A stretch of 64,000 bases of DNA, from the NCBI GenBank assembly GCA_019058445.1, contig JAHPZA010000004.1, positions 290,084 to 354,083 of the forward strand. The letters run 5' to 3'. The notes under the pieces were generated by a model that was not told the origin of the DNA, made no database searches, and worked only from the letters and a program-made list of their open reading frames with translations. Below are positions 22,546 to 43,942 of this stretch, one piece after another. Source of the DNA: Promethearchaeota archaeon (GTDB taxonomy: Archaea > Asgardarchaeota > Lokiarchaeia > Sigyniarchaeales > SOKP01). Within the stretch, counting starts at the first letter, position 1. Each line of letters opens with the position of its first letter. The translations under genes were made by a program, and so were the position numbers.

Positions 22546-22560
22546 AATTGTTTCTCCATT

Positions 22561-22989
22561 TTATAAATCTAATAAAGATAGATCAAACTGTGGATCATTC
22601 GCTCGAGTAATAGTTTGAGTTATTTCATAGACGTAAACTTCGGCAGTAACAGAAACTATACTTGGCTGACTTAAATGTCCTCCAATAATGCTATAATCTT
22701 CCTTACCGACTGATACATGTAAATGAATTATTGGTTCATTATCTTTAAATGCAATATTGCCCATACAAGATATTAATTCTATATCTTCATCAAAAGTTTT
22801 AAAATTGTACTCTTTTGTTTCAATATCAAAATATCCAATTGTAAATTGTTTTAAAGCACCGATAACATTTAGGAGTCCTGATTTTATATTATGTTTCTTA
22901 ATAAGTTCTTTAATGGCATCAACAATATCTTCATTTGGTTCTATTTTTGCAACAATTACGCGCCCAACTGTTGTTTCTTTGCTTTTCAA
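22561..22989 (-). CDS. PPC/DUF296 domain protein
   Basis: IGAL, ELISCMGNI, HLHVSVG, GGHL and TAEV. Confidence 0.9.
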   Translation of the reverse strand: MKSKETTVGRVIVAKIEPNEDIVDAIKELIKKHNIKSGLLNVIGALKQFTIGYFDIETKEYNFKTFDEDIELISCMGNIAFKDNEPIIHLHVSVGKEDYSIIGGHLSQPSIVSVTAEVYVYEITQTITRANDPQFDLSLLDL

Positions 22990-23192
22990 TGTTTTCCTCT
23001 TCTTATTTTTTCAAACAATCTTATGGATTTAAAAATTAATAGAATATGTTAAATTGTTATATTCTTATACTTTTAAAATTATAGAATTTTTAAACCTTTT
23101 TATTCTTTTTTTTAGCTATGATAATTAGTAAGGATGACTTACTTAATTGAGAAGTAATTATTCTCTTAAAAATTGAATCCTATTCAACATTT

Positions 23193-23732
23193 TTAATCAT
23201 TTAATATAATTTGGTTAATTAATTTTTGAAAAGCAAATTCAACATTTTCTCCATATTTAGCACTAGTTTCAATAAACTCAATTGCGTTCATCTTATCGGC
23301 TAATTGTTTTCCTCTATCTTTATCAACATATCTCAAATCTTTCAAATCTTTCTTGTTTCCAATTAAAATGACTTCAGATTCTCTTTTTCCAAATTTTTGA
23401 AAGTCATGCACCCATTTATTGTAGATATGGTCAAAAGTTGATTCTCGCGTAATATCGTAGACAAATAAGGCTCCAGAACATCCCTGAAAAAACATTTTTC
23501 GTGATAAATCATAAATTTTTTGGCCTGCTATATCCCAAATAATTAATTTGGCAGAAGTATTTGGATTATCCATCTTTATTTCTTTAGCTATGATATTTGC
23601 TCCTAATGTTGGTCGATAATCTGTTTCAAACGTATGATCGACATATTGATTAATTAAAGATGTTTTTCCAACTGCTGGGTCTCCCAATAAAACAAGCTTT
23701 AAAATGTATTCATGTACATTTTCATCTGACAT
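23193..23732 (-). CDS. Rab-like small GTPase
   Basis: GDPAVGKT, WDIAGQ, NKKD, ETSAK. Confidence 0.95.
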   Translation of the reverse strand: MSDENVHEYILKLVLLGDPAVGKTSLINQYVDHTFETDYRPTLGANIIAKEIKMDNPNTSAKLIIWDIAGQKIYDLSRKMFFQGCSGALFVYDITRESTFDHIYNKWVHDFQKFGKRESEVILIGNKKDLKDLRYVDKDRGKQLADKMNAIEFIETSAKYGENVEFAFQKLINQIILND

Positions 23733-24921: not shown

Positions 24922-26811
24922 ATGGCAAATTTATCCACTAAATCTGTAGCCAAGGTAAAGAGAGTTAGCAAAAAAGAGATACAAAAATTAAAAAAAGAAG
25001 GATATATCATTTTTTCTTCTCATAATCACACTAATTTTTCTGACGGCGTTGATTATCGTGAGGTTATTGATACTCTTGTTAAAATTGGAGTAAATCTAAT
25101 TGCACTCACTGATCATAACAATATGCGAGTAGCGGAATATGCAAAAACCTATATCGAAGATAAATACCCCGACTGTGGTTATTTATGCGCTGAAGAAGTT
25201 GATAGTCATTATGGTTGTGTTCTCGGTTATGGTTTACAAACAGAGATTCTTTTTGAAGGTGAGGAAAAACCCCCTATTAAATCAATTATTGAAGATATCC
25301 ATGAACAAGGTGGTTTAGCTGTTGTTGCTCATCCATTCCATCCTTTAGAAGGGATCTTTAGACCTTTTGGGGGATTAAGAATATCAGAAATCACTAAATT
25401 GAACTTTGATGGAATCGAATTTTTTCATGCAGATCTTCCCCCATTCCTCAATAATATGTGTTCTACTCTTGTGAAATTGCGACCACAAATGTTTCTTTTA
25501 GGAGGGGATGATGCCCATACAATTCATCATATAGGAAGATATTTGAATTTAGTTGGACCAGATATTGATGATGTAAATAATCTTGATGACATTTTAAAGG
25601 CTCTAAATAAGCGAAAAACAACTGTTCTCGAATTAAGAGGATGGGTTACTCGACCTTTTCAGACGTTGCCAGGGTTTAAAGATATTTTTATTAACAAGGG
25701 ATTAAAACGAATTAATGCTTTTGCGGGAATTTATGGTCTTTTTAAAGGTATACATTTTCAGCATGAATCAATGGGGTGGATTCCAAGAACAGTTCAGGAA
25801 TTCAAAGCGGAACTTCTGCAAGTTATCCAGACTATGAACATTAACACTATCCGGCTTGATGCTATGCGAACCGAGAGTAGAGCATATGAATTTGCATCAT
25901 TGGGAAAGGAACTGGGATTAAATGTAATACTTTCTCCTAAATATGTTTATCCTAGGGGGCTATCCAAACCTCAGTTAGATGAATCTTTGACTTATGATGA
26001 ATTTGAAGATTTTTGCTTGGAACATGCTCAAAGAGCACAAAAAGCGGGGGTGGATATTTTTTGTGTGGGAAATGAACTCACTCTAGAGCTAAGTGATGAT
26101 AAATCAGGTCATTTAGAAAGGCTGCATGATGACTTTTTCTCACAATTTGCCCCTTCTAGTTTAGAGATGATCCCGGGTCTGGGTGCTACTTCCATTGCCA
26201 AGCTGGGGAAGCTTAGAAAAAAGAAGTTTAGACTCACTACATATTTGGAAAATTTATCTAAAAAAGTGAGGAATTATTATAATGGGATGGTTTCCTATGC
26301 TGCTGGCTCATGGGAAATAAGAGACGTCCCTTGGAAGCATTTTGATCTTATATGTTGCAATCTATTTTACAGCGATTTATTTTTAAAGTACGTTGAGGTT
26401 TTACCAGGTCTGAAGATTATAATTCCAAAAGGTAGCCCGTCCGTACGAGCCTCTCACTTATTTCGTCAAAACATACAATATCTCAAAACCTTTAAAAAAC
26501 CAGTCATTATTTCGGAATTGGGTTTTCAGACAGTCACTGATGCGATACAAGTTGGTCCAATACCCATTCACCATCATAAGAATTTCGAACAATTCAAATA
26601 CGATGAAAATGCACAATCAAAAGCTTTTTCAGAAGTCTTTAATTTGTTGGAAAAGGATATCTTTGTTAATGGAGTGATCATTCATAAATGGAGAGATCTA
26701 AAAGAAGAGGGTTTCGGTTTAATACACGCTAATGGTATCTATAAACCAGCATGCAAAAATATATCAGATTTTTTTAAAACGTGGACTATCTCATATTCCA
26801 ATAATAAATAA
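24922..26811 (+). CDS. PHP-family phosphoesterase fused to a clan GH-A-like glycoside hydrolase TIM barrel
   Basis: N-terminal HNHT..SDG, TDHN, AHP and GGDDAH; C-terminal VGNEL (acid/base) and ISELG (nucleophile). Confidence 0.75.
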   Translation: MANLSTKSVAKVKRVSKKEIQKLKKEGYIIFSSHNHTNFSDGVDYREVIDTLVKIGVNLIALTDHNNMRVAEYAKTYIEDKYPDCGYLCAEEVDSHYGCVLGYGLQTEILFEGEEKPPIKSIIEDIHEQGGLAVVAHPFHPLEGIFRPFGGLRISEITKLNFDGIEFFHADLPPFLNNMCSTLVKLRPQMFLLGGDDAHTIHHIGRYLNLVGPDIDDVNNLDDILKALNKRKTTVLELRGWVTRPFQTLPGFKDIFINKGLKRINAFAGIYGLFKGIHFQHESMGWIPRTVQEFKAELLQVIQTMNINTIRLDAMRTESRAYEFASLGKELGLNVILSPKYVYPRGLSKPQLDESLTYDEFEDFCLEHAQRAQKAGVDIFCVGNELTLELSDDKSGHLERLHDDFFSQFAPSSLEMIPGLGATSIAKLGKLRKKKFRLTTYLENLSKKVRNYYNGMVSYAAGSWEIRDVPWKHFDLICCNLFYSDLFLKYVEVLPGLKIIIPKGSPSVRASHLFRQNIQYLKTFKKPVIISELGFQTVTDAIQVGPIPIHHHKNFEQFKYDENAQSKAFSEVFNLLEKDIFVNGVIIHKWRDLKEEGFGLIHANGIYKPACKNISDFFKTWTISYSNNK

Positions 26812-26836: not shown

Positions 26837-28255
26837 TTATTTGTCCAAAAGTCCAAATTTTTTGAGTCCTTGCCTCATATCGGGTTGAAACGGTCCTGGA
26901 GTCCCCTCTATAAACGCTTCAATAATATCTTGATTATTGACTTCGTGTGACTCTCTTTTTTTCGCTTTTTCTTCCGCGAGTGATGTTATTGCCATTCTTG
27001 CCATTGATTGAAATTGAGGGGGAGATAATTTGATTAATTCATTGAAGATTTTTTCAGTTTCAGGATCCCATATCAGCTCTGATTTTCTCTCTTTCTTGGT
27101 TTTCGTTGAATCTACTCCAAATTCACGGCTTGTCACAATATCATTTAGATAATCCTTTAAAGATTCAACATATCGGGTAGATTCTTCTTCATCAAGGAAT
27201 ACTGCCTTTTTTGCCCAATCCTCGCAATAGGTACATTCACCGCACATAGCCACACAATTTTGTTTTTTAAAGAAATCTATAAATCCGTCAAGTTTCGTAT
27301 TGTCTATAATTAGTTTAGATTTAGATTCTTTTCCTAGGGTTTCACTTATTTTTGCATTAGGATCCTTTTGTTCCAGACCTCCGAATGACATCGAAAATCC
27401 TTGAATAATATCCACAAGATTTCCATGATATTCACGGGAAGCAAATGCTTTTACTGCTCTGACAATCCATTCAGTTGACATGCGTCGCCCTGCGATTTTA
27501 AAATCATCAATTCCAATCGCTTCATAGTGGGAAAGGTCTTCAGGTCGAATCCATCGTGCTTTTATAACTTCCGTTGGATCAGAAAATTTAATAATACTAC
27601 AATTTAAAATGCATGTATCGATATAATTACGCTCGAATTGTTGATGGGTCTGAGAGGCATGTCCAAGTATATTATAATGATAATATCTAAATGGACATTG
27701 ATAAAGACACCCATCAGTTAAAAGTAACACGATTTTGCAATTAGTTGCTTCCTTGATTTTTTCTAAAGTCTGGAAATCTCGGTTTATCATTACATCAGGA
27801 GTTATCTCATCCGCGCCTAGCATTTCATATAATTTTGCCCGATTCACACTATTAATATGGGCAATAGTAGATACACGAATTTTTAGTTTAGGAAATTGTT
27901 CCTTAATAAGCTGTATTAGAAAAGGAATAGTAACAATTACATTATCAGTTCCTATATCACTAATCCATTGAATGTATTTAAGCAGTTCTTTATGATATTG
28001 CGAATTATATTCCATATTATTCATGCAAGGGGCATTCAATAAATAAGAAAATTCCATTTTATTCTCATGAACCTTTTTGATGTACTCAGCAATTTGCTCT
28101 TCTTGTATTGTTTTTAATAAGAATGAGGGACGACCTCCTCCGACAAGTGTGTGATCAGCAACCCCATACAAACTAGCAACCGGATATTTTGCCAGTTCTT
28201 CTATAAGGTTAAAATCCCAATTCGTTGCTACATGAAATTGAATTTTTTTCACCAT
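26837..28255 (-). CDS. U32 family protein (Fe-S hydroxylase-like, UbiU/UbiV/RlhA/TrhP superfamily) with C-terminal PCP_red/DUF2621-like domain
   Basis: GGGR, LNAPC, GCLYQCPF, CILNC, WIRPEDL and FKIAGR. The last ~78 aa (LIWDPETEKIF...TPGPFQ) match the shared domain. Confidence 0.85.
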   Translation of the reverse strand: MVKKIQFHVATNWDFNLIEELAKYPVASLYGVADHTLVGGGRPSFLLKTIQEEQIAEYIKKVHENKMEFSYLLNAPCMNNMEYNSQYHKELLKYIQWISDIGTDNVIVTIPFLIQLIKEQFPKLKIRVSTIAHINSVNRAKLYEMLGADEITPDVMINRDFQTLEKIKEATNCKIVLLLTDGCLYQCPFRYYHYNILGHASQTHQQFERNYIDTCILNCSIIKFSDPTEVIKARWIRPEDLSHYEAIGIDDFKIAGRRMSTEWIVRAVKAFASREYHGNLVDIIQGFSMSFGGLEQKDPNAKISETLGKESKSKLIIDNTKLDGFIDFFKKQNCVAMCGECTYCEDWAKKAVFLDEEESTRYVESLKDYLNDIVTSREFGVDSTKTKKERKSELIWDPETEKIFNELIKLSPPQFQSMARMAITSLAEEKAKKRESHEVNNQDIIEAFIEGTPGPFQPDMRQGLKKFGLLDK

Positions 28256-28288: not shown

Positions 28289-28675
28289 CTACTTAACTGC
28301 TTTAGCATGGGCTTTTGCATTAAGTGGTAATAACGGAGCGCATGCCATGAGTTTAGTGACGTCCCCTTCTACAACATATGTTCCGGACATTGTTGCTTGA
28401 ATTGGATCAGACTCACCTGAATTTACTTTTTTAATTGTCTCAAAATCCGTTTTGTGGATTACCTTTGGAGCATCTGGTCCTTTATATTCACCCATTCCCC
28501 AATTCATCTTGTCATTTTCAATATATTGCCAATAATTCATCTCTGGCTTGTCAGTTATGATATATTGAAAAATTAACGGAGCTATCGGCTCTAATAACTG
28601 CGTTAAATCAGGTAACTCATTATAAGCTTTCATGAAGCGTGTTAAATACGCTTTCCATTCTTCATTTTCATCCAT
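28289..28675 (-). CDS. SCP2 sterol/lipid-carrier domain protein
   Basis: 128 aa; GESDPIQATMSGTYVVEGDVTKLM matches the SCP2 C-terminal signature. Confidence 0.85.
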   Translation of the reverse strand: MDENEEWKAYLTRFMKAYNELPDLTQLLEPIAPLIFQYIITDKPEMNYWQYIENDKMNWGMGEYKGPDAPKVIHKTDFETIKKVNSGESDPIQATMSGTYVVEGDVTKLMACAPLLPLNAKAHAKAVK

Positions 28676-28775: not shown

Positions 28776-29948
28776 TCATTTATAAGAATCAATTCCCGCT
28801 TTAGCACCCATAAACAAGAAATCTACCATAGTCCCATTATAGTCATTTTCGATTTTATAATAGAGACCGTTGGGCGTGAAAGTAATGCCATAGATAAACT
28901 TTCTCATTTCACTCTGGAATGGGGATTCTTCAACATATTTTTTTATGAGGGGATGAAAGTGCGTCGGAACTTGTTTTGAATCATGACATGCTATACCAAA
29001 ACATAGGCGCTCAATTCTAGACGAATCCCAGCTAAAAGTATAATTAAGATGGGCAGCTTGACAACATCTTTCCATTATTTCTTCAGATGCAATCTCAAAA
29101 CCTATGTCTTTCACGAGCGCTTTGCATTTCTCAGGTGTCGCTGTGGAAGGATCTCTTAGCATAAAATAGATATTTGTTGTCTCATGTAAAAAATCAAAGG
29201 CAAAAACAGCAAAAACAAATAATTTATGTTTTTTGAAGTATTCTTCATAGGTTTTCATGCTTTGTGGAATATATTTCATTGAAAAAATGGAATCAATAGG
29301 ACCGGGGACGATAAACGGCCAGATCTTTGATAATCCATTCCTTGCATCCAAATCAACACCATAACCCAAAATATCAAACGTATCAAATACTTCTAATATC
29401 ATTTTGTGAATAGCGTGCCCATTTTTTTCGATTAACCCTTCATTTATAGCAACTGTATATGGATCTGGATCATGGACTATCATCATTTCCACATATCTGA
29501 CAGAGACATCCCTATTTTCAACTGGCTTAGTAGTAGTTCTAATTGATACTGGAGAACCTGAGAAAAATTTCTTATAGGCATTGAGTCCCTTCCAAATAGC
29601 ATCTTCATTACATTTTACTCCTGTAAGTACCCCAAGCTTTAAAATATCTTTTACCATTTGATTTAGATCATTATTACATTTAAAATCAGATTTGATTTTG
29701 GGTAAATATAGTTCATATTCGACACCTAAAGCTAATAAATCTTCTATCATAGTTGGTTGAAAAGCGGGGGGTGTCACTTCAAACAAAGCGATTATAAGAT
29801 CTATTTCTGCGACATTTTTCCCATTTCTTTCTATACATTTCTTTTCTGCGTTCTCAAAGAGCATAGGTTTTATGACAGGTCTTACCATTTCTGGAATTTT
29901 TAAAACTAAGTTATTATATAATTTTTTGACTTCTGGTTGCCATTCCAT
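28776..29948 (-). CDS. soluble ABBA-family aromatic prenyltransferase (NphB/CloQ-like) with N-terminal PCP_red/DUF2621-like domain
   Basis: YGVDLDARNGLSKIWPF, FAFDFLHETTNIYF, YTFSWDSSRIERLCF and YYKIENDY match PT-barrel strands of NphB/CloQ-type enzymes. Confidence 0.8.
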   Translation of the reverse strand: MEWQPEVKKLYNNLVLKIPEMVRPVIKPMLFENAEKKCIERNGKNVAEIDLIIALFEVTPPAFQPTMIEDLLALGVEYELYLPKIKSDFKCNNDLNQMVKDILKLGVLTGVKCNEDAIWKGLNAYKKFFSGSPVSIRTTTKPVENRDVSVRYVEMMIVHDPDPYTVAINEGLIEKNGHAIHKMILEVFDTFDILGYGVDLDARNGLSKIWPFIVPGPIDSIFSMKYIPQSMKTYEEYFKKHKLFVFAVFAFDFLHETTNIYFMLRDPSTATPEKCKALVKDIGFEIASEEIMERCCQAAHLNYTFSWDSSRIERLCFGIACHDSKQVPTHFHPLIKKYVEESPFQSEMRKFIYGITFTPNGLYYKIENDYNGTMVDFLFMGAKAGIDSYK

Positions 29949-30011: not shown

Positions 30012-31436
30012 TTATATTAGATATTTTGCGAATTGAATTTGGCTCAATTCAGCAAATCCTTCTGGATTATTAAAGCCAAGTCCTGGCATCATCCATCTAG
30101 GATTATTTATACCATACTCCCTAACCACTTGAAAGAGGTCAACCTCTTTGATTTTTGGAGAGATATAGAATTTTGGTTTTAGTAAATTTTCATTCTTTTG
30201 AATTACACCCTCTTGTTCAGCAATGAGTTGAAGAGGTGTATGAGGGTAGATTCTCATACCGATAAATACTATTACATCACCATCTCCTTGCCATAGGTTC
30301 CCTCTATAACTCTTTATTGTTTCTAACTGATTAAATGAAGCTCGAACCGTATCAAGAGTTTCTCCAGGTCCCCCAACTATAATATGAATTAATTGTTCAA
30401 TATCTAGCTCAAAGCATTTTTGTGAAGTGAGAATAGCTTCATCGGGGGAACGACTTTTTTTCATATTTCTTAACATCTCCTCTGAAAATGATTCTATTCC
30501 CGTTGCAAAATGTGAGGCACCGCTTTTTTTCATAAGGGGTATTAAATCAATAAACATTTTATTCGGCACATAATTCGCTCCCCAATTAATATCAACTTTA
30601 TGTTTTATAATTTCTTGACACGTTTCCTTTAAATGATTATAGTCTAAATTAAAAACACTATCTACAATAAACACATTTTGTATTTCATAATTGTTTACCA
30701 TTATATCAAGCTCCTCAGCAATTTTTTTTGGAGATCTATAACGAACAGTAGAGCCTTCAATGTACTTATAACTGCAGTAAATGCAATTCATTGGACATCC
30801 TCGTTTTGTTTGAATATTTCCCCAAGTAGGACCTGTTTTTTTCAATGGATCTATGAGATACGCTTCATTTTCAATCAACTCTCGTGTAGGAAATGGGAGC
30901 TTATCTAAATTTTCTATTCGCCATGGAGGTCTCTGATAATAGTGCCCCTTTTTATCGATAAAGCATATACCCATCTGAATTTTCTTTAAATCATTATGAA
31001 CTTTAAGCCGCTTCAGAATCTCGGCAAATACATATTCACCCTCACCTACTACTCCGATATCGTGTTTTAAATCTCTAAGGATTTCTTCTGAAAAAATTGA
31101 AAACCCAGCACCACCTAGAACTACTGGAATTTCTGGTTCTGCGATTTGCTTAATATATTGAATAATTCTTTTAACGGGTAGATAAAAAAATAAGTTTCCA
31201 GGGTAAGTTGTAGAATCAACATTCCGAATGGAAATACCGATTAAGTGAGGATTGAACTTCTCAATAGCGTTAGAAATGTCTCGTTTAACATCGTTACTGA
31301 GGGTTAAATCAAGTATTTTTACATCATGTCCTTGACTAATAAGATAAGCTGCAAGATATGCTTCTCCTAAAGGTGGGACCATTACATGGACTATTTCCCG
31401 ACTGCCAGAAAAGATTAATACACGCAAATTATCCAT
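30012..31436 (-). CDS. cobalamin-binding radical SAM protein (class B methyltransferase-like)
   Basis: PPLGEAYLAAYL, GISIRNVD, GEGE, RGCPMNCIYC and GPGET. ATG at 31436 is preferred over TTG at 31442. Confidence 0.92.
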   Translation of the reverse strand: MDNLRVLIFSGSREIVHVMVPPLGEAYLAAYLISQGHDVKILDLTLSNDVKRDISNAIEKFNPHLIGISIRNVDSTTYPGNLFFYLPVKRIIQYIKQIAEPEIPVVLGGAGFSIFSEEILRDLKHDIGVVGEGEYVFAEILKRLKVHNDLKKIQMGICFIDKKGHYYQRPPWRIENLDKLPFPTRELIENEAYLIDPLKKTGPTWGNIQTKRGCPMNCIYCSYKYIEGSTVRYRSPKKIAEELDIMVNNYEIQNVFIVDSVFNLDYNHLKETCQEIIKHKVDINWGANYVPNKMFIDLIPLMKKSGASHFATGIESFSEEMLRNMKKSRSPDEAILTSQKCFELDIEQLIHIIVGGPGETLDTVRASFNQLETIKSYRGNLWQGDGDVIVFIGMRIYPHTPLQLIAEQEGVIQKNENLLKPKFYISPKIKEVDLFQVVREYGINNPRWMMPGLGFNNPEGFAELSQIQFAKYLI

Positions 31437-31454
31437 CCTCAATTTTATTGTAAA

Positions 31455-32873
31455 TTATAACTTCGTTCTCTTTTCAATTAATTCGATTTCTTCTTCATGA
31501 GAAGCATTTATTTCGTTTCCATGATTATTTTCATGCCAACAGAAAGGGAATGACCCAAAAAAGTCACCTGTTATGTATTCTGCGGTCACACGACATCCTC
31601 CACCGCAATATTTAAGATGATGACATTTTGCGCATTTGCCTTTAATTTTTTTCCTGTCGCGTATATTCTTATAGAGCTGAGAATTTAAGATATCTTCAAA
31701 GTTATCCTTTAATCCATGACCAAGGGTTAATTTGGTAGGATATCCCGTTGGATATAATGTCCCTTCTACACCAACACCCATCATTGTTCTGCAAGCTAAG
31801 CACCCTACTCCCCATTCAAGTGCTGTGACTTCCTTATCATTCCTAAAACATTCCATAAAAGGCATCATCTCATAAATTTCATAAGCCGGTAAGGTTCCTG
31901 CTTCCCCTTCCCTAATCTTCTCAATCGCATGTTTATATTTATAATCATATAATCTCTTGTATTCCTCTTTATTCAGACCAATTTCATCCCAATGGATCGC
32001 AGCGCGATTTACTTTTACAATAGGCCTAAAAAAGGGTTGAGCCCCCCATTGTAATGATAAATCGTTGAGCTCCTGCAATTCATCAATATTTTGTTTCATA
32101 ACAGTTATAGATGCACACGCAAATAATCCGTATTTCAAACAATTTTTAATTGCTCTTTCAGCATATTCTAAGGAATTAGGAAAACCACGTATTTCATCAT
32201 TTTTCTTTGGATCAGTACTGTCAAAACTGACAAAGACATGACTTAATTCATTTTCTTTACACATTTTTGCAAATTCCTCATCAAATGCTACTCCATTGGT
32301 AATAATTGCATGATAGTATCCGTTTTCTTTACAATGTTTCATTAATTCACCAATGTCTTCTCTTAGAGTAGGTTCCCCGCCAAACCAAATGAAACAAGCA
32401 TGTCTACCTTGAGCTCTAAGTCCAGATTCTATATTATCCATTATTTGGCACCACTGTTCTTTTGTCAACTCCTCTCGAGGGGGCAGACCATCTGCAGCGG
32501 CACAATGCACGCATTTCATATTGCATCTATCTGTGACATACATCGCGAAATGAATATTTCCAGGATGAAAGGCTTTTTCCATTTTATCCCAGGATAATTT
32601 AAGTCGATCTCTTATTTCATTAATTTCAATATATCGCTCTACATCTATATCTAAGGATTTTAAATCTTCAACCATCATGGATTTAAAAGCTTCGGGGATA
32701 ATATCAAAAATTCCGGTAATTACATCTTCTTCATTCACATAAGATTCATTTCGTTCGATGCATCTTTTTTGAGCAGCTTCTATAATCATAGGTTTAACGG
32801 AAGGACGAAATCCTTCTGGCATTTTTTCTACGATTCTGGCAAATAATTTTTCTGTTTCTGGTTCCCATTCCAT
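31455..32873 (-). CDS. radical SAM/SPASM protein with N-terminal PCP_red/DUF2621-like domain
   Basis: CNMKCVHC, FGGEP and CAKCHHLKYCGGGCR. The real start is likely ATG 32873 (MEWEPE), matching paralogues and avoiding overlap. Confidence 0.92.
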   Translation of the reverse strand: MEWEPETEKLFARIVEKMPEGFRPSVKPMIIEAAQKRCIERNESYVNEEDVITGIFDIIPEAFKSMMVEDLKSLDIDVERYIEINEIRDRLKLSWDKMEKAFHPGNIHFAMYVTDRCNMKCVHCAAADGLPPREELTKEQWCQIMDNIESGLRAQGRHACFIWFGGEPTLREDIGELMKHCKENGYYHAIITNGVAFDEEFAKMCKENELSHVFVSFDSTDPKKNDEIRGFPNSLEYAERAIKNCLKYGLFACASITVMKQNIDELQELNDLSLQWGAQPFFRPIVKVNRAAIHWDEIGLNKEEYKRLYDYKYKHAIEKIREGEAGTLPAYEIYEMMPFMECFRNDKEVTALEWGVGCLACRTMMGVGVEGTLYPTGYPTKLTLGHGLKDNFEDILNSQLYKNIRDRKKIKGKCAKCHHLKYCGGGCRVTAEYITGDFFGSFPFCWHENNHGNEINASHEEEIELIEKRTKL

Positions 32874-32886
32874 TAAGACCCACCCA

Positions 32887-34254
32887 TTATTTACAATTTT
32901 CATGTTCATGATCATTTTTATGCCAACAAAACGGGAGAGCCGCTAAAAAATCACCAGTTACGTTTTCAGCATGGACCCTACAGCCCCCACCACATAAATC
33001 AAGATGATGACAAGTTGAACATTTCCCTTTTATTTTTCTATCTCTAATTTTTTTAAACATTTCGGTTTCCATAATCTCATCCCAACTTTGCTCAAGAATG
33101 TTGCCTAAGGTTAATTCAGAGGGATAATCGCAAGGGAATACATCTCCATTGGTATCAATCCCAGAAATTGAGCGGCAGGCTTGGCATCCTGTGCCCCATT
33201 CGATCGCAGTCCTTTCCTCATCATTTATAGGACACTCCATGAATGGCACCATATCCCATGTATAGAATTTATTAAGAGCCGATGCTTCTCCTTTTCTGAT
33301 GGCTTCTATAGCGTTTTTATATTTGAAATCATAGAATTGTCGATATTCATCCATACTTAAGCCGATTTCGTCCCAATTTAAATCCGCCGAACGTTGTTTG
33401 ATCAGGGGTCTGTAAAAGGGAATTACGCCCTTAGAATCAAAATATTTTTTTAAGTCTTCTAATTCATCGAAGTTCTCTTTTTGTGCAGTTACATTAGCAA
33501 TGGTAAAAAGCCCATATTTTGAAGCTAAATTTAGGGCTTTTTCCGCCGCCTCGTATGCTTTTGGATGCCCTCTAATTTTTGCAGCCCGTTTAGGATCTGT
33601 ACTATCATAACTAATAAAAACATGGCTCATCTTAACATCTGCGCATAATTTCGCCAGTTCTTCATTAAATAAAATTCCATTAGTTGCAAGTGCTTGATAA
33701 TAGCCCTTTTCACCGCAATATTTTATTAAATCTTTAAGATCTTTACGAATAGTAGGTTCTCCTCCAAACCATATATAACAACCTCGACGACCGCGTTTTC
33801 GTAAGCTGAGTTCAAGATCCTCAATAATTTCAATCCATGTTTCCGTGGGAAATTCTGGACGTTTCTCCATTACTGCGGCAGCACAATGAAGACAATTTTG
33901 GTTGCATCGATCTGTGAGATATAAAGTGAAATGATATACTCCTGGTAAAAATGCACCACTAATTTCTTCCCAAGTACGAGTATAATTTTTCCTAATTTCT
34001 GACAATTTGATATATCGTTTTGTATCAATTCCTAATTTTTTCAAATCTTGGACAACTGTTGGTTGAAACGCCTCGGGAGTTATTTCAAATAGCGCGGATA
34101 ATAGATCATCCTTGCTTACATAACCAGAATTCCTAAGTCGTGCTGTTTTCTCAGCTGCTTCACGCAACATAGGTTTTACAGCCGCACGAAATGCTTCAGG
34201 TACTTGTTCTGTGATGGTTCCATACATTTCTTCAATATCTTCTTTCCATTCCAT
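32887..34254 (-). CDS. radical SAM/SPASM protein with N-terminal PCP_red/DUF2621-like domain
   Basis: CNQNCLHC, FGGEP, CQAC...GDVFPC...CSTCHHLDLCGGGCR. ATG 34254 follows the SD GGTGA. Confidence 0.92.
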   Translation of the reverse strand: MEWKEDIEEMYGTITEQVPEAFRAAVKPMLREAAEKTARLRNSGYVSKDDLLSALFEITPEAFQPTVVQDLKKLGIDTKRYIKLSEIRKNYTRTWEEISGAFLPGVYHFTLYLTDRCNQNCLHCAAAVMEKRPEFPTETWIEIIEDLELSLRKRGRRGCYIWFGGEPTIRKDLKDLIKYCGEKGYYQALATNGILFNEELAKLCADVKMSHVFISYDSTDPKRAAKIRGHPKAYEAAEKALNLASKYGLFTIANVTAQKENFDELEDLKKYFDSKGVIPFYRPLIKQRSADLNWDEIGLSMDEYRQFYDFKYKNAIEAIRKGEASALNKFYTWDMVPFMECPINDEERTAIEWGTGCQACRSISGIDTNGDVFPCDYPSELTLGNILEQSWDEIMETEMFKKIRDRKIKGKCSTCHHLDLCGGGCRVHAENVTGDFLAALPFCWHKNDHEHENCK

Positions 34255-35310
34255 ACTTTTCACCTTAATTTTTCCTTTTTTTTGAACTTAATTATTTATT
34301 GAATTAAATAATAATACTATTTTATATTCAGAAGAATTACATTTTTTTTTCATTTTTGTATCCTCCCGTGTGATAGACTCATGAATATTAGGAGAAGTAT
34401 TAGTATTGGGAGGAAGACAACGTTTTTTTAAACCATAAATAAGGATTATTATAAAAACCAAACACAAATAAAATTTTTGTTGAAAATTAGAGATGTTGTG
34501 AAGTTTTAAATAGAATTTGTTATGCCGTGTAATGCGGATATAACTTTTGTTATTTCCATAATAGTTAGAGAGATTATTAATTCTTTTACTTAAAATCCAT
34601 TTTTTTCCTATTTTAATATTTAGAGATCTATTATTGCCTGTTGACAAATCCTCTAATTCAATTGCACTCTCAGGTTCGTTGGACTGACTTCGTAATTCTG
34701 CATTGTTTCTAAGATAGAGATCTAAAAAAGTAAACGTTCCTAAGTCATTCTTTAAGCACACATTTTTAACATAGTGATAAACACTAGAATCAATATGGAT
34801 AATTATGCTAATAATAATGAAGATATCAATTAACTGACCAATAGTTAGATGAATGAATTGATATTTTTCAGGTAAAAACCAGAAAAGGTTAATGTTAGGT
34901 ATAACTGGAAAAAAAAAAGAATTCCCTGATGTAAAATATTTCTCTAAAAAAGAAATTAAAACAGGAATATCCTTTAAAATCATGTAAATTATAGAAACTA
35001 AGAAAAAGGATGTAATAAAGATTAAAATCAAAATAACTTTTAATTTTTCAAGTTTATGATAATTTTTCATGTCTTTAACGCTCTACTTTCAACGAAATTT
35101 TAGATGAGTTTTACTTTTAAAGAATAATGTTTCAATATCTTGGTTAAATAAATTTGCAATTAATTAACTATTTATTATTATTGCTTTTTGAATTTTTTCA
35201 TCTATAATTGTCATTTTTGTAAGAAATAGTCCAATATAATTAAATTATGGTTAAAAAAGTGTAAGAATAAAAAAAATTAAAGGCTATATTATGTATAAAA
35301 TTTAATTATT
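34143..35310 (-). repeat. copy A of a ~1.17-kb diverged inverted duplication
   Basis: The reverse complement aligns by eye with 39780-40949, covering the upstream region, the 260-aa ORF and the first ~37 codons of the radical SAM gene. Confidence 0.9.
34288..35070 (-). CDS. uncharacterised 260-aa membrane protein, first gene of the operon (copy 1)
   Basis: Three hydrophobic segments; a full-length paralogue of identical length lies at 40021-40803. Confidence 0.6.
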   Translation of the reverse strand: MKNYHKLEKLKVILILIFITSFFLVSIIYMILKDIPVLISFLEKYFTSGNSFFFPVIPNINLFWFLPEKYQFIHLTIGQLIDIFIIISIIIHIDSSVYHYVKNVCLKNDLGTFTFLDLYLRNNAELRSQSNEPESAIELEDLSTGNNRSLNIKIGKKWILSKRINNLSNYYGNNKSYIRITRHNKFYLKLHNISNFQQKFYLCLVFIIILIYGLKKRCLPPNTNTSPNIHESITREDTKMKKKCNSSEYKIVLLFNSINN

Positions 35311-36841: not shown

Positions 36842-38329
36842 TTACTTTTCTTTCATTTTGGAATCTTTTGAGCCTGTAGTTAAAAACATGGGAGCAGTAG
36901 TTAAAAACAATAACATATTTGCATTTTTGATAGAAACTTTAGAAAAATTCTCAGTGTCATAATTTATTACATTATAGAAAAAGGATATTTTTGCTCTTTT
37001 AAAAATTTCGACGATCTCGAGAAAAGACTTATAGTTTAGTTTAATACCGAATGTTTCAGGAGATTCGTGTGCTGGAGAACCAGGAAAAATATGATAGGGT
37101 TCACTCATAATGGTTATTGGTTTGAAATTTGATGGGCCATATTTTAAAAGACATTTAGCTCCAAAATTAAAATCTTTAAGAACATCTATCCGTTTTTGAA
37201 ATGGAAATCCTATAGTTAGCCAAATTCGTAGGGGGATTTGATATAAATTTGCATGTTTTATTAAAGTATTAATTTGACTTTTAGGAAAGCGAAATGTTGG
37301 GTCACACACTTTAGCTATTTTTTGGTGAACACGCGAGGATAATGTGCGAGGAGAAATGCTGATTGAGGAATATTTACGAGTAAATGTTTTGTGAAATATT
37401 TTCCACATCTCTTTAGGAAACGGTAACCTCCATATCTCTAAATCTCCGCTAATCTCAAATTTTTCTTTTTGAATTAAACCAAATAATCTTTTCCAATATT
37501 TTAAACTCGCTGGATATGTACCATGCCCGAAAAATAGGCTTTCGATTTTATACTTGCTAAGAAGATAACTAATATCTTCTACTACATTATTTGGATTTCT
37601 AAGTAAGACCTTATTTCGTCCAGAATTCCTCTGCTGAGCTCTTTGACCTCCTCCACAATACGGGCAATTATAAGGACATCCTCTTCCAATAGGGAGATTG
37701 TAAGAGATTCCCATAATTTTTCTGCTGTATTCGACATATTTTTTCGCATTCAGAAGTGATGATAAGTTTGAAAAATTTAATGTATCCAGAGACTTCGCAA
37801 TATATGAAAGAGAATTTACTTTAATGTGTTTAGATGAATCCCGATAAGTTAAATTGGGAACAGAATCTAAAGGTAGGTTTTGATTAACCTTTTTTATAAA
37901 TTTTAGAAGAGGAACTTCACCTTCTCCTCTAATAATTCCATCAATTACGCTATAATATTTTAAGATTTGATCATGATAGTATGAAGCACTAAAACCCCCA
38001 AGAATCACTTTTACATGAGGTTTTATCTTTTTTACAATTTTAGCAATTTCGATGGCGCCATGTGCATTATGAATCCAATGTAAATCGATTGCACATGCAT
38101 TAAAATCAATATTTTTAAGATAATCAGACAAATTCCAATTACGATTTAAATATTTTTCAAAGGGATAATTTACTATTTTAACCCCAAAGCCTTCCCTCTC
38201 AAGGAAATCGGAAATAGCAAAAATACCCATTGGAATAAAAATATATTCCCCACGTTTAAATCTGGCATGTTTATTATGGGGATTTAACACTCTAGGAGGG
38301 TGTATGAACAGGATATCGAAGTTTTTCAA
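36842..38329 (-). CDS. cobalamin-binding radical SAM protein (paralogue of 42437)
   Basis: DILFIHPP, AIDLHW, RGEGE and RGCPYNCPYCGG. Confidence 0.9.
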   Translation of the reverse strand: MKNFDILFIHPPRVLNPHNKHARFKRGEYIFIPMGIFAISDFLEREGFGVKIVNYPFEKYLNRNWNLSDYLKNIDFNACAIDLHWIHNAHGAIEIAKIVKKIKPHVKVILGGFSASYYHDQILKYYSVIDGIIRGEGEVPLLKFIKKVNQNLPLDSVPNLTYRDSSKHIKVNSLSYIAKSLDTLNFSNLSSLLNAKKYVEYSRKIMGISYNLPIGRGCPYNCPYCGGGQRAQQRNSGRNKVLLRNPNNVVEDISYLLSKYKIESLFFGHGTYPASLKYWKRLFGLIQKEKFEISGDLEIWRLPFPKEMWKIFHKTFTRKYSSISISPRTLSSRVHQKIAKVCDPTFRFPKSQINTLIKHANLYQIPLRIWLTIGFPFQKRIDVLKDFNFGAKCLLKYGPSNFKPITIMSEPYHIFPGSPAHESPETFGIKLNYKSFLEIVEIFKRAKISFFYNVINYDTENFSKVSIKNANMLLFLTTAPMFLTTGSKDSKMKEK

Positions 38330-38542: not shown

Positions 38543-39484
38543 ATGGACTATATGATAGAATTAATCTTTAGAATTGTATTTCCGTTAGTGTTAGTAGGAT
38601 TTATTGTAATTATCTTCATTAGTAGTCTTTCCAATAAAAATCCACATCATACGTTTATGGATTTTGATACTTTCCTAAAAGATTGGATCAAAGATCACGG
38701 AGTAGCTCATAAGGAGGAGGAATATTTTGCACAAATGAAAAAAGATCCTTCTGGAGCACTTTATATGCCTTTGACCTACAAAGGTGCAAAAATATTCATA
38801 AAATGGGGTTTTACTCCTAACAAAGTATCTTACTTAAATCTGATTTTCTCATTTTTCATATTTTATGGTGTGATAATGGCAGGTGAAGGCCATGCCCTTG
38901 ATTTACGTTCTCAACAACCATATTATGGCATTTGGTTTTTTGCTCTTGGATTTTTGGTACTTTTTACGGGAGTTATCGATGGAATTGACGGTGCAATTGC
39001 CAGGTTATTGGATATAAAGTCAAAAAGTGGCGCTTGGCTAGATAATGTGATTGATAGGATGAGTGATATATTATTATTAGTCTGTTTAATTCCAGGCAAT
39101 TTCCTAGTATTTTTAAATTACGGACTTGATTTTACATGGATGATTTGGACTAATATTTTCTTAATATTTCTTTATGAATATATGAGAGCAAGACATGAGG
39201 GTTTAGGGTTGCTTGAAACAAAACCCTTTGCTGGTGAAAGAGTGACGCGTATATTAATAATTGGCACATGTTTTTTGATTTATGGTATTTCGAGTTTCAT
39301 GATTGTAGTAACTGATTGGATTTACCCCTCTGCTACAGTAATCTGGCTTAATTCACATTATGCTGCAACAATTTGGTGTATGCTAATTTTCCAAGTTATA
39401 TTACTAGGTATAATGGCTATATCATCCCTACAATTAGCAAGATATAGTTTTAAACAACTAAAGAAAATGGATACTACTAACTAA
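38543..39484 (+). CDS. CDP-alcohol phosphatidyltransferase family protein
   Basis: TPN and DGIDGAIAR...SKSGAWLDNVIDRMSD signature; multiple TM helices. Confidence 0.93.
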   Translation: MDYMIELIFRIVFPLVLVGFIVIIFISSLSNKNPHHTFMDFDTFLKDWIKDHGVAHKEEEYFAQMKKDPSGALYMPLTYKGAKIFIKWGFTPNKVSYLNLIFSFFIFYGVIMAGEGHALDLRSQQPYYGIWFFALGFLVLFTGVIDGIDGAIARLLDIKSKSGAWLDNVIDRMSDILLLVCLIPGNFLVFLNYGLDFTWMIWTNIFLIFLYEYMRARHEGLGLLETKPFAGERVTRILIIGTCFLIYGISSFMIVVTDWIYPSATVIWLNSHYAATIWCMLIFQVILLGIMAISSLQLARYSFKQLKKMDTTN

Positions 39485-39520: not shown

Positions 39521-39748
39521 TTGGAATGGGAAAAAGAGACAGAAGAACTATTTGAAGGAATAATAAATAAAATGCCTGAGGGATTTCGTCCTTCTGTAAA
39601 ACCAATAATAATTGAGGCGGCTAAAAGTAGATGTATCGAGCAAAATGGTGGTGCTCATATTAATGATACTGATGTTATTACAGGGATTTTTGATATTATT
39701 CCTGAAGCATTTAAGAGGTTAAAAAAAAATATTTTTAATTACCAATAA
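39521..39748 (+). CDS. stand-alone PCP_red/DUF2621-like domain (free copy or remnant of the N-terminus of the 31455 radical SAM)
   Basis: KMPEGFRPSVKP and DVITGIFDIIPEAFK are identical to the 31455 protein, followed by an unrelated tail; TTG start. Confidence 0.6.
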   Translation: MEWEKETEELFEGIINKMPEGFRPSVKPIIIEAAKSRCIEQNGGAHINDTDVITGIFDIIPEAFKRLKKNIFNYQ

Positions 39749-41012: not shown

Positions 41013-42326
41013 GTGGTATTTTTCATTATTTTACACTTAAATTTTCCACCCTCTTGGTCGTCCGGAACAAAAACGGCAATTGACACTTTCTTTGCTGATC
41101 CTTTAACTTATTGGTGGTTTATATTTCCGTTTATTGGACTAATGATTCTATTGGGATTTATTATTTACTATGGAATATATTTTCTAGCATCGTTTGGTGG
41201 TGGTTATCGAGTTAAAATTCCATATTATGCAAATATAAGTATCTTAATTGCTTCTAAAAATGAAAAAATATTATTAGAGAGAACCTTAAATTCCATTATA
41301 AAATCAAATTATCCTATGGAAAAAATACAATTAGTCATAATAACAAGCGGATCAACAGATGATACTACTGAATATTGTCAAAGATTCGCAAGAGAGCATA
41401 AATCATTAAGCATAGAGGTTTTATCAGAGAATCTTCCAAAAAAGGGAAAACCTCCAGCTCTAAATTATGGTTTAAAATATGTTGAGAATGATATTATTAT
41501 CCTTTATGACTCAGGCTGCATTTTAGAACCGGATACATTAAAGAATTTAATAGCACCATTTCGAGATGAAAAAATTAATGCGGTTATTGGCCCCGTATTA
41601 GTCAAAAATTGGAAAGATAACAAGTTAACCAGAGGTATTTATTTTGATTATGCCTATATGTCCGGTGGTGGACAACTCTTCGAAACTAAAAATAGATTAG
41701 GAGCATCAGCTTATTCATTTGGAAGAAATTTTGCAGTTTCTACAAGATATATTCGTAAATATGGAGGTTTTAATGAAGATTCAATGACCGAGGATCTTTA
41801 TCTCTCAGTGCTTTTAAATTTAGATGGAGTTAAGATTCATTTTTCACCTAAAGCAAGAGTTTATGAATATGTGCCAAATAAATGGGAAATTTTGGTTAAA
41901 CAGCGCACACGATGGATTGCAGGATATACTTATGATATGCCGCAATTAATGGCAATGGAAGGCAAAGACAAGAATGGGAAATCAATAATTATTTCAAGAA
42001 ATATGACTATGACTGTAATTGGAAATATGGATACATGGATTCCTATTATAATCGGATTTGCAATATTTTATTTTATAATCGGTGAATATTATTTACTAAG
42101 TTGGACAATATTATGTTTATTCTTTCAATTTGGCTTTTTATTTAATGCTTTGCGTAAATATGCTGATAGTCATTATAGTCTATTATTCTTTTTTCCAATA
42201 AGTGCTTATATTCATCTATTTATGTTTACATGTCAGTTTAAACTTCCTAAAGAATTAAGCTGGGAAAAAACCCCCATGATTTTAGAAAGACAAGAAGCAG
42301 AAATTAAAGCATTGTCCAGTCAATAG
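41013..42326 (+). CDS. GT2 family membrane glycosyltransferase (QxxRW type)
   Basis: KGKPPALN, YDSG, TEDL and QRTRW, with flanking TM helices. The frame is open upstream to ATT 40977. Confidence 0.9.
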   Translation: MVFFIILHLNFPPSWSSGTKTAIDTFFADPLTYWWFIFPFIGLMILLGFIIYYGIYFLASFGGGYRVKIPYYANISILIASKNEKILLERTLNSIIKSNYPMEKIQLVIITSGSTDDTTEYCQRFAREHKSLSIEVLSENLPKKGKPPALNYGLKYVENDIIILYDSGCILEPDTLKNLIAPFRDEKINAVIGPVLVKNWKDNKLTRGIYFDYAYMSGGGQLFETKNRLGASAYSFGRNFAVSTRYIRKYGGFNEDSMTEDLYLSVLLNLDGVKIHFSPKARVYEYVPNKWEILVKQRTRWIAGYTYDMPQLMAMEGKDKNGKSIIISRNMTMTVIGNMDTWIPIIIGFAIFYFIIGEYYLLSWTILCLFFQFGFLFNALRKYADSHYSLLFFFPISAYIHLFMFTCQFKLPKELSWEKTPMILERQEAEIKALSSQ

Positions 42327-42436: not shown

Positions 42437-43942
42437 TTGAAATCTATTGATATTTTGTTTTTGCATCCTCCAAGAATTTTTGCAAAAGATTATCTTGAAG
42501 TGAGAAGTGCCTTTGCTATGTTGCCTGTAGGGCTTGTAGCTCTGGCAGATTATTTAGAACAAAACGGCTATTCTACCCGTATTTTGAACATTCCGATGGA
42601 AATTCATTTTAACAAAAATTTTCGTCTCTCAGAGTATTTAAAATCAGTTGACGTTAAAATTTGTGCTATTGATTTACATTGGATTTTGAATGCGTTTGGT
42701 GCCATTCAAACCGCAGAAATCGTTAAGAAATTTAATTCCAACATAAAGACGATTGTTGGTGGATTTAGTGCTACTCACTTCCATGAAGATGTGATTAATT
42801 ATCCTTCAATAGATGTTGTTGTACGAGGAGAGGGGGAGTATCCACTTCTACAACTGGTAAATCATTTTCTAAAAGGAAGTCCTCAAATGAAAGAGATCCC
42901 AAATATCACTTTTAAACAGAATGGGAAAATATATCAAAACCCAGTGAAATATATCGCAGAAAGTCTTGACTTCCTGAATTTTAGTCGTATGGAATTGATG
43001 GAAAATTGGAAAAATTATACAAAAATGATTCCATCCATCAGTATTATGATGGGACGTTCTTGCCCGTTTAAATGTGGATATTGTGGAGGTGGAAACGATG
43101 CGTATTATAAGCTGCATAAAAGAAGAAATGTGATTTTGAGAGATCCAAAACTTATTGTTGAGGATATTGTTCATTTGAAAAATCTCTATCCTAAATTAAA
43201 ACTCATCGATTTAACTCATGGATATTATCCCGGGATACATCAATTTTGGATGGATCTATTACATTTTATTAAAAACGAAAAGGTTGATCTAGGAGCAATA
43301 TTCGAAGCTTGGGATTTACCAGTAAAAGATTCCTTTTTAAAAGAAGCAGTTAAAACTTTCAATGCTAAAATGTCATTCTTAAATTTTTCCGTGCATTCAT
43401 TTTCAGAACGAGTACGGAAATCCTTTGTAAAGCTTGGAGACCCTAAGTTCAGTTTTTTAAATACTGAAGTGTACAATTTAATTACAAAATGTGGTAAGTA
43501 TTACCTGCCTTTAGTTCTTTGGTTAACTGTAGGCAACCCATATGAGACAGTCCAAGATGTATTGATAAATCTCAAACACCTTTTAAAAATTACCAAAGAT
43601 TATATTCTTAGGAATAAGCAAGCGATTTTATTTATCAATACCGCAATTTTAATAAGTCCAAGCAGTCCAGCATTTTTAAACGAAAAGAAATTTGGAATAG
43701 ATATTAAAGTCAAGAATTTCCGGGATTTTTACAGTCTATTTAGAGATCTTCGCTATTCCATGGGTTTTTTAGATGATCCTGTTAATTATGATACTATCTA
43801 TTTATCTAGAAGAAAAATTAAAATTTTAAATAATGTTTTTCAAGGAATTAGTATCCTTCCCATAATCCTTTCCCTCATTAACCTTAAAACTCATATAAAT
43901 ACACAAATAAGAAAATTAAAAATTCAAAATAGAAAACAATGA
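42437..43942 (+). CDS. cobalamin-binding radical SAM protein (paralogue of 36842)
   Basis: DILFLHPP, AIDLHW, RGEGE and RSCPFKCGYCGG. Confidence 0.9.
   Translation: MKSIDILFLHPPRIFAKDYLEVRSAFAMLPVGLVALADYLEQNGYSTRILNIPMEIHFNKNFRLSEYLKSVDVKICAIDLHWILNAFGAIQTAEIVKKFNSNIKTIVGGFSATHFHEDVINYPSIDVVVRGEGEYPLLQLVNHFLKGSPQMKEIPNITFKQNGKIYQNPVKYIAESLDFLNFSRMELMENWKNYTKMIPSISIMMGRSCPFKCGYCGGGNDAYYKLHKRRNVILRDPKLIVEDIVHLKNLYPKLKLIDLTHGYYPGIHQFWMDLLHFIKNEKVDLGAIFEAWDLPVKDSFLKEAVKTFNAKMSFLNFSVHSFSERVRKSFVKLGDPKFSFLNTEVYNLITKCGKYYLPLVLWLTVGNPYETVQDVLINLKHLLKITKDYILRNKQAILFINTAILISPSSPAFLNEKKFGIDIKVKNFRDFYSLFRDLRYSMGFLDDPVNYDTIYLSRRKIKILNNVFQGISILPIILSLINLKTHINTQIRKLKIQNRKQ

Follow-up and report, generated by a model that had tools for sequence, protein, structure and literature searches.

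An ABBA-type aromatic prenyltransferase with a shared four-helix domain in a Lokiarchaeial operon of radical SAM, SCP2 and U32 genes

Soluble ABBA prenyltransferases are described, in the literature that we searched, from bacterial and fungal natural-product pathways, and the prenylation of rings and of glycerol in archaea is attributed to membrane enzymes of the UbiA type. What, then, does a gene for an ABBA enzyme do in an archaeon? The gene in question lies in a stretch of 64,000 nucleotides (hereafter the window; contig JAHPZA010000004.1, positions 290,084 to 354,083, forward strand) from the genome of a Promethearchaeota archaeon (GCA_019058445.1). From the letters alone, an initial annotation had read its product as a soluble aromatic prenyltransferase of the NphB/CloQ type, fused to a domain shared with neighbouring proteins. 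Our reading, to which we give a probability of about 60%, is that this protein (PT) is a catalytically competent ABBA prenyltransferase acting as the prenyl step of an accessory, O2-independent pathway for a prenylated aromatic lipid in one Lokiarchaeia-type family. The enzyme family is known; what is new is this variant of its domain architecture, in a host where it was not expected and within a pathway that has not been described. NCBI records of homologues already bear the name 'aromatic prenyltransferase'. Literature searches on Asgard or Lokiarchaeota ABBA prenyltransferases, on DUF2621 and on PF11468 found no description of the archaeal enzyme or its operon, and the cluster is mentioned neither in a preprint on radical SAM enzymes of archaeal lipids nor in a paper on Asgard lipid transfer.

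Family, fold and active site of the prenyltransferase

The gene and its two domains are the following.

28776..29948, minus strand: PT gene, 390 aa; DUF2621-like domain followed by an ABBA (PTase_Orf2) aromatic prenyltransferase (open reading frame, Pfam)
29676..29948, minus strand: N-terminal four-helix domain, residues 1-91, DUF2621/PCP_red-like (Pfam, alignment, AlphaFold2)
28779..29672, minus strand: PT-barrel catalytic domain, residues 93-390 (AlphaFold2 model, Foldseek, ligand residues)

The open reading frame (ORF) is intact, starts with ATG and occupies exactly 28776..29948 of the minus strand. Residues 95-378 match PTase_Orf2 (PF11468) over profile positions 3-283 of 287, with an E-value of 9.6e-50 and 170 bits, where the Pfam cut-off is 22 bits; a profile scan of the whole genome repeated this match and found PT to be a single copy. 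A phmmer search of all PDB sequences with PT returned ABBA aromatic prenyltransferases only, namely AmbP3/FamD1 (5e-41), AmbP1 (1.5e-40), EpzP (2e-33), NphB (3e-23) and CloQ (2e-8). Read from its sequence, the translation contains neither a hydrophobic transmembrane stretch nor a DDxxD or NDxxD motif, the (N/D)DxxD motif being typical of membrane and trans-prenyltransferases.

An AlphaFold2 model with 44 homologues as input (mean pLDDT 95.2, pTM 0.92) predicts ten strands arranged as five pairs and flanked by helices, with a separate helical domain in front. The ten-stranded antiparallel β-barrel of repeated α-β-β-α units is the trait of the ABBA family (PMC3485228). When the model was compared with Foldseek, the probability was 1.00 for each of AmbP3 (TM-score by target 0.92), AmbP1 (0.90), EpzP (0.85), NphB (0.80-0.83) and CloQ (0.78-0.83), while fungal enzymes of the DMATS type and cyanobactin-type enzymes came far lower in the ranking. 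The structure overlay on NphB that the initial annotation had called for was thus run, and since the best structural matches are PT-barrels, its proviso that another fold might head the list falls away. Pfam, PDB sequence matches, the model and the Foldseek overlays agree with one another and, at the level of sequence and predicted structure, indicate that PT is a genuine soluble PT-barrel enzyme of the NphB/CloQ family, as had been claimed.

The diphosphate ligands of EpzP are R49, K117, R232 and K283 together with N172, Y174 and Y220, with R62 acting via water, and Mg-dependent ABBA enzymes differ from EpzP at R49 and R62 (PMC3485228). In the HMMER alignment, EpzP R49, K117, N172, Y174, Y220, R232, K283 and R62 correspond to R137, K208, N259, Y261, N302, R314, K365 and R151 of PT. 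Among the 44 clade members R137 is kept in 41, K208, N259, Y261, R314 and K365 are kept in 44, and R151 is kept in 41-44; the column of EpzP Y220 holds Asn in 26 sequences and Tyr in 17. The same five invariant positions align to K119, N173, Y175, R228 and K284 of NphB (Orf2 of Streptomyces sp. CL190; PDB 1zb6), the founding member of the Pfam family, which has the PT-barrel in common with PT at an identity of ~20%. NphB is Mg2+-dependent via an Asp, whereas the PT clade has Ser (28 of 44 sequences) or Ala (15 of 44) in that column, and in both columns that tell Mg-independent from Mg-dependent enzymes PT carries Arg (R137 and R151). Because the basic and polar ligands are conserved and the metal Asp of NphB is replaced, PT looks catalytically competent and is probably of the Mg2+-independent type.

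EpzP/PpzP and CloQ (actinobacterial, Mg2+-independent; PDB 4ee6 and 2xlq) are 19-25% identical to PT; PT keeps the four basic ligands of EpzP as well as N172 and Y174, and the aromatic pocket differs, with E367 and D369 invariant on the PT side. Together with D199 and D252, which are also invariant in the clade alignment, these two residues suggest that the acceptor pocket differs from those of EpzP and NphB. AmbP1 and AmbP3/FamD1 of cyanobacterial hapalindole/ambiguine biosynthesis (PDB 5yk9, 5y4g and 5ynt) are the best solved relatives, at 28-30% identity. They have in common with PT an R-Y pair on strand 2, the motifs G-x-x-K-I-W and N-x-Y-F, and a K-x-[DE]-x-D-Y that ends the last strand. 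They differ in that they have no N-terminal helical domain, take indole-isonitrile alkaloids as substrates within a secondary-metabolite cluster, have no SCP2, U32 or radical SAM partners and belong to oxygenic phototrophs. In the reaction that we propose, the prenyl diphosphate would be ionised at the top of the barrel, held there by the tetrad R137, K208, R314 and K365 with the help of N259 and Y261, and the aromatic acceptor would be alkylated lower in the barrel, in the region of the invariant D199, D252, E367 and D369.

Host, distribution and phylogeny

Otherwise the PT family belongs to bacteria and fungi, and bacteria supply the nearest outgroups of PT, as would be expected if the gene had arrived as bacterial contamination or by a very recent transfer, on a chimeric contig and without a stable role in the archaeon. 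The evidence on the host argues otherwise. The genome (4.6 Mb, 10 contigs, 92.6% complete) carries PT on a contig of 498 kb, and genes for three Ras-family GTPases, KTI12 and CDC48 lie in the same window. Independent metagenome-assembled genomes (MAGs) have a homologous operon flanked by Asgard signature genes, those for Ras/Arf GTPases, actin, Roadblock and AAR2. The contig is archaeal and not chimeric. The initial description of the gene as AT-rich like its neighbours holds as well, as composition and codon usage match the genome: GC is 0.339 against a mean of 0.325 for long ORFs (z +0.36), GC at third codon positions has a z of +0.89, and relative synonymous codon usage correlates at 0.84. 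Contamination or chimerism is very unlikely, and we regard a stray bacterial gene as a barely credible account of the locus. Long residence, which had been read from the same composition, stands only in part: base composition is ameliorated, but the patchy spread within genera is also compatible with repeated loss or with transfer inside the family.

Homologues at 56-84% identity number more than 120; nearly all are ~390 aa long, and the named ones come from Promethearchaeota or Lokiarchaeota MAGs. Among 301 species-representative genomes of the phylum in GTDB, PT is present in 19, which are its own genome, 17 of the 68 others in its family and the one genome of the sister family (1/1); none was found in the representatives of the 28 other families. 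Within its own GTDB family, the gene occurs in 29 of 135 genomes, in 13 of the 36 of high quality and in 7 of 13 genera. Two MAGs submitted under other names, L028 (JBHLRJ010000002.1, 'Candidatus Thorarchaeota') and L010 (JBHLLI010000002.1, 'Candidatus Hermodarchaeota'), are the same as genomes G330 and G331, respectively, by identical contig coordinates, and GTDB puts both in the family of the window. The submitters' labels therefore do not widen the range of PT, and they look unreliable. Whether an Asgard clade exists had been raised at the outset; an archaeal PT clade does exist, but it is confined to one family and one sister-family genome and is not Asgard-wide. This clade is narrow, accessory and patchily inherited.

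A collection of 1.84 billion proteins, clustered at 50% identity, has only 207 clusters with a match to the PT domain at E≤1e-3. The phylogeny of PTase_Orf2 homologues, calculated with IQ-TREE, recovered the archaeal clade: PT of the window falls in a clade of 9 rows (support 100/100) that is nested in one of 25 rows (100/100), and all rows of the latter except P0164 have the N-terminal domain. Three groups make up the larger clade: orthologues from Lokiarchaeia, paralogues of these with 389 aa, and bacterial sequences whose named members are from 'Deltaproteobacteria' MAGs; the tree fixes neither the branching order among them nor the direction of transfer between domains of life. The next relatives are prenyltransferases of Omnitrophota, Deferrimicrobium, Aminicenantes, Clostridia and Anaerolineae MAGs and of Acetivibrio clariflavus. 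Streptomyces clades, recognised by cluster names (P0221, and P0175, which is SCO7190), are distant from PT in this tree, in which the solved AmbP, EpzP, NphB and CloQ sequences are not included. The tie to actinobacterial and fungal enzymes drawn in the initial annotation is right as to the NphB/CloQ family, but the nearest relatives are enzymes of uncultured anaerobic bacteria that have the same partners or the same fused domain.

One relative comes from a cultured organism. The 380-aa protein WP_014254177.1 of A. clariflavus DSM 19732, a thermophilic clostridium (CP003065.1; L045:10001-11143), has the same architecture of DUF2621-like domain and PTase_Orf2, belongs to the same well-supported 43-row clade of anaerobe prenyltransferases and is ~41% identical to PT in the PT domain. 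Unlike PT, its gene stands alone, next to a NUDIX hydrolase gene and with no radical SAM, U32 or SCP2 neighbours. As a cultured carrier of the fusion, this species offers an experimental entry point.

The operon, its fusions and the proposed pathway

PT is encoded in a run of genes on the minus strand, whose members are listed here in the order of the chromosome.

26837..28255, minus strand: U32-family Cys-rich protein, probable Fe-S protein, with the shared domain at its C-terminus (Pfam Peptidase_U32, DUF2621)
28289..28675, minus strand: SCP2-type lipid-carrier protein, 128 aa, the next gene downstream of PT (Pfam SCP2, 23 bits, cut-off 21.3)
30012..31442, minus strand: B12-binding radical SAM enzyme, 476 aa, directly upstream of PT (Pfam B12-binding and Radical_SAM)
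31455..32915, minus strand: radical SAM/SPASM enzyme with the shared domain N-terminal (Pfam, NCBIfam, alignment)
32887..34263, minus strand: second radical SAM/SPASM enzyme with the shared domain N-terminal (Pfam, NCBIfam, alignment, synteny)
34288..35070, minus strand: operon-leading membrane protein (two predicted transmembrane helices, SG.S.F.P...GHLIDI motif)
36842..38329, minus strand: B12-binding radical SAM enzyme, 495 aa, TIGR04190/Ta0216-like, which heads the conserved block in other loci

About 30 loci share the gene order B12-radical SAM enzyme, membrane protein, SPASM, SPASM, B12-radical SAM enzyme and PT, followed either by SCP2 and U32 or by three U32-like genes; SCP2 and the upstream B12-radical SAM gene are syntenic with PT in most of them. 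PT and the SPASM enzyme each occur in 29 of the 135 family genomes and both occur in 25, the mismatches being mostly fragments at contig ends or divergent copies. As had been claimed, PT is fused to a locally shared domain: both SPASM enzymes have the same domain, and the U32 protein carries it C-terminally.

Gene fusions tie the same components together. SCP2, the shared domain and PT are joined in proteins of 536 aa (P0050 and P0083), SCP2 is joined to PT in P0126, a radical SAM/SPASM enzyme is fused to SCP2 at L002:7988-9505, and at L002:12377-14425 a protein of 683 aa joins U32, the shared domain and an SCP2 part that closely matches the free SCP2 of the window. Loci with this 683-aa protein often have no separate SCP2 gene beside PT. 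Because SCP2 is fused to PT, to a radical SAM enzyme or to U32, these arrangements point to a substrate that would be lipophilic and carrier-bound. In two further loci (L006:3724-4941 and L038:9980-11200) PT is replaced by a 42%-identical protein of ~406 aa that belongs to another clade, and the operon partners, namely SPASM, B12-radical SAM and SCP2 in L006 and one SPASM in L038, are 65-74% identical. This looks like non-orthologous displacement; taken with the conserved order, the co-occurrence and the fusions, it says that a prenyltransferase is integral to the pathway. The displacing enzymes carry the shared domain C-terminally and not N-terminally, which says that the domain is required and its position in the protein free. 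Bacterial outgroups keep parts of the order, with U32-PT in Deferrimicrobium and SPASM-PT-SPASM on a contig labelled Aminicenantes.

Based on this organisation, we propose that PT carries out the prenyl-transfer step of an accessory route that does not need O2. The greasy intermediate would be kept on the SCP2 carrier and tailored by the two SPASM radical SAM enzymes; the B12-radical SAM enzymes would probably contribute C-methylation, and the U32 Fe-S protein, for which UbiU/V are the model, would probably hydroxylate without O2. The end product would be a ring-modified aromatic lipid, prenylated, hydroxylated and methylated, and the shared domain would serve for docking, either between enzyme and carrier or among the enzymes. 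The locus then presents an ABBA enzyme that carries a new fused domain, is stably embedded in an Asgard operon and is linked through gene fusions with a lipid carrier and with tailoring enzymes that do not need oxygen. Identification of the product would add a lipid or cofactor to those known from archaea, perhaps one that could serve as a biomarker for a subset of Lokiarchaeia, and would give U32/SCP2-type anaerobic chemistry a second context beyond ubiquinone and RNA modification.

The closest known parallel is the UbiT-UbiU-UbiV system of Proteobacteria, in which UbiT (SCP2) and UbiU/V (U32, 4Fe-4S) hydroxylate prenylated ubiquinone precursors without O2, the oxygen coming from prephenate (PMC6747719, PMC10990095). 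The likeness lies in an SCP2 carrier and a Cys-rich U32 protein encoded beside a ring prenyltransferase, and in the other operon loci, where there are three U32 genes and one of these is joined to SCP2. The differences are that ubiquinone synthesis uses the membrane enzyme UbiA and not an ABBA prenyltransferase, and that the window has one U32 gene and no UbiU and UbiV pair. The U32 protein matches Peptidase_U32 at 3.8e-13 over profile positions 2-65 of 233 only, and matches the archaeal U32 protein of PDB 5d88 at 6e-8. Direct kinship with UbiT, UbiU or UbiV was considered and found to be unsupported.

Several observations weigh against the proposed pathway. Neither substrate, donor chain length nor product can be read from the sequence, and the operon contains no gene for an aromatic precursor. 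The U32 protein is ~18% identical to UbiU/V, and its Cys spacing (CX3C-X27-CX3C plus a C-terminal CX4CX2CX2C) is unlike the four-Cys [4Fe-4S] motif commonly published for U32 proteins, CX6CX15CX3/4C; the SCP2 protein has no direct similarity to UbiT (BLASTP against the E. coli protein, E 0.22). Bacterial fusion genes of the domain and PT occur without radical SAM, U32 or SCP2 neighbours, and because they stand alone the shared domain may act for PT itself, as a lid on it for instance or in binding its substrate, and not in docking. The constant neighbours of the operon, genes for a CDP-alcohol phosphatidyltransferase, a glycosyltransferase of family 2 (GT2) and Ta0216-like B12-radical SAM enzymes, hint at a link to membrane lipids and leave room for another target: it could be a membrane lipid and not a free aromatic compound.

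The resemblance to ubiquinone synthesis raises the more specific idea of a respiratory quinone operon, an anaerobic archaeal analogue of ubiquinone/menaquinone synthesis in which PT would replace the membrane enzyme of the UbiA/MenA type. PT, SCP2 and U32 would then parallel UbiA, UbiT and UbiU/V, B12-radical SAM enzymes could give the C-methylations and AhbD-like SPASM enzymes a decarboxylation. The genome context of UbiTUV is, however, a ubiquinone pathway with quinone respiration (PMC6747719). Profiles for NrfD, NarI/HdrE-type cytochrome b, NuoH, cytochrome b and cytochrome bd found nothing in the present genome, which is 92.6% complete, and they do match in control genomes; UbiE, UbiG, UbiD and UbiX were not searched for. 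The operon is also missing from ~79% of its own family's genomes, an unusual pattern for a core electron carrier. With no quinone-using respiratory modules found and the operon accessory, a respiratory quinone is not supported, and we consider it unlikely. A bolder form of the proposed pathway, to which we give a small chance, is that PT would start a fully cytosolic, carrier-chaperoned, O2-independent route to a quinone/quinol-like redox lipid. Each step of bacterial quinone synthesis that needs O2 or a membrane would have a substitute, with an ABBA enzyme in place of UbiA, U32 in place of flavin hydroxylases, and methylation and decarboxylation left to B12 or SPASM radical SAM enzymes; the four-helix domain would then be a new metabolon docking domain that recruits enzymes to SCP2.

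The shared four-helix domain and the neighbouring genes

Modelled alone, the shared domain (~85 aa) is predicted with a pLDDT of 91.6 to form four helices, at residues 5-16, 23-40, 48-58 and 61-73, and W3, P19 and P60 are invariant in its alignment. Its resemblance to DUF2621 (PF11084) is borderline: the copy on PT, with 17.1 bits (E 0.006), stays under the cut-off of 27.7, and the copy on the U32 protein, with 28.1 bits, barely passes it. The best score of any copy against PCP_red (PF08369) is 14.7 bits, a weak match at 0.032, and look-alikes in the Atlas, stand-alone bacterial DUF2621/PCP_red proteins with a score of 0.8, are a lead only. In this genome the domain occurs at this locus only, on PT, both SPASM enzymes and the U32 protein, as a free 75-aa ORF and as a fragment.

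39521..39748, plus strand: free-standing 75-aa copy of the shared domain (profile, alignment)

An attempt to identify the domain by structure failed. Foldseek against the PDB gave at best an E-value of 0.16, among histone-fold noise, and a profile search of PDB sequences found nothing below E 0.19. The best VIA-align match, at Z 7.9, was to AAA+ lid domains (BchI, MCM, dynein), which is the noise level for helical bundles, and the match to asr4154 (2l09), at Z 5.8, also lies within noise. Most likely, we infer, the domain is a pathway-specific, non-catalytic module that docks to the carrier or among the enzymes.

If this domain were instead related to PCP_red, it could bind a macrocycle, and SPASM enzymes like AhbC, AhbD or NirJ could remove side chains from it, so that the operon would tailor a tetrapyrrole or other cofactor. 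NirJ2, AhbD and AhbC are indeed the best NCBIfam matches of the SPASM enzymes (1e-40), and both the PCP_red score and the structural match to the BchI lid agree in direction. The SPASM scores are, however, far under the family cut-offs (~139 bits against 500), the structural Z values do not rise above noise, the cluster contains no tetrapyrrole genes and the SCP2 fusions point to a lipid. A role in tetrapyrrole or other cofactor tailoring is highly improbable.

The combination of SPASM enzymes and B12-radical SAM methylases is also typical of the maturation of ribosomally synthesized and post-translationally modified peptides (RiPPs). In such a pathway the shared domain would bind a leader peptide, the radical SAM enzymes would cross-link and methylate, and PT would prenylate Tyr or Trp. 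There are weak NCBIfam matches to PqqE, MftC, RiPP methylases and ApyD, the shared domain is placed where the RiPP recognition element sits on such enzymes, and ABBA-fold enzymes are known to prenylate cyanobactins. Against this, the intergenic gaps of the operon are 12-100 nt, no conserved small ORF was seen in the compared loci, and SCP2 lipid-carrier domains are fused to three enzyme classes. Moreover, the shared domain is all-helical and not a winged-helix recognition element, and the cyanobactin prenyltransferase LimF (7vmy) is only a remote structural match of PT (Foldseek rank 49, E 1.2e-5, TM-score 0.45-0.56, 11% identity). RiPP maturation is distinctly unlikely, and a carrier-bound lipid remains the reading that we prefer.

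Naming the SPASM, B12-radical SAM and U32 partners by homology failed, the matches being weak and far under family cut-offs; the 476-aa B12-radical SAM enzyme, for example, has TIGR04072 as its best NCBIfam match, with 279 bits for a cut-off of 360. The operon-leading membrane protein is conserved only over its N-terminal ~125 aa; as a candidate peptide precursor it was considered and dropped, conservation being confined to the half with the two transmembrane helices. Beyond the head of the operon lie the following genes.

38543..39484, plus strand: CDP-alcohol phosphatidyltransferase, which together with GT2 recurs beside the operon in at least 10 loci
41013..42326, plus strand: GT2, recurring with the CDP-alcohol phosphatidyltransferase in those loci
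42437..43942, plus strand: second B12-radical SAM enzyme of the TIGR04190 (Ta0216) type

The two Ta0216-type enzymes score 243-255 bits against TIGR04190, under its cut-off of 500; together with the CDP-alcohol phosphatidyltransferase and GT2 they return next to the PT operon in at least 10 loci and may form a module that tailors membrane-lipid head groups or tails. Two paralogous membrane ORFs of 260 aa, at 34288-35070 (minus strand) and 40021-40803 (plus strand), face each other across a block of 4.9 kb. The second of them leads into GT2 and then the Ta0216-like B12-radical SAM gene, and is followed by the fragment of the shared domain at 40784-40978, an arrangement consistent with an inverted duplication of the head of the operon. 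A search of the window for tRNA genes found none, so that no tRNA marks an island boundary there.

Elsewhere in the family of PT, a distant member of 611 aa (P0156) carries a C-terminal FAD_binding_4 oxidase domain, and genes for FAD_binding_4 and CCG/Fer4_8 proteins close the extended operon in L002 (17792-20355). On the other side of the operon in the window, a 629-aa protein with an N-terminal PHP-domain phosphoesterase and a C-terminal GH113-like glycoside hydrolase region is encoded at 24922-26811 (plus strand) and converges on the operon end. The three Ras-family small GTPases lie at 20754-23732 (minus strand), with a PCC-domain gene and an ORF of 192 aa without annotation set between them, a cluster typical of Asgard genomes. 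Nine kb from the operon, at 17037-18080 (minus strand), is a gene for a 347-aa S-adenosylmethionine-dependent methyltransferase with weak matches to O-methyltransferase (PF00891), to a dimerisation domain and to UbiE/COQ5.

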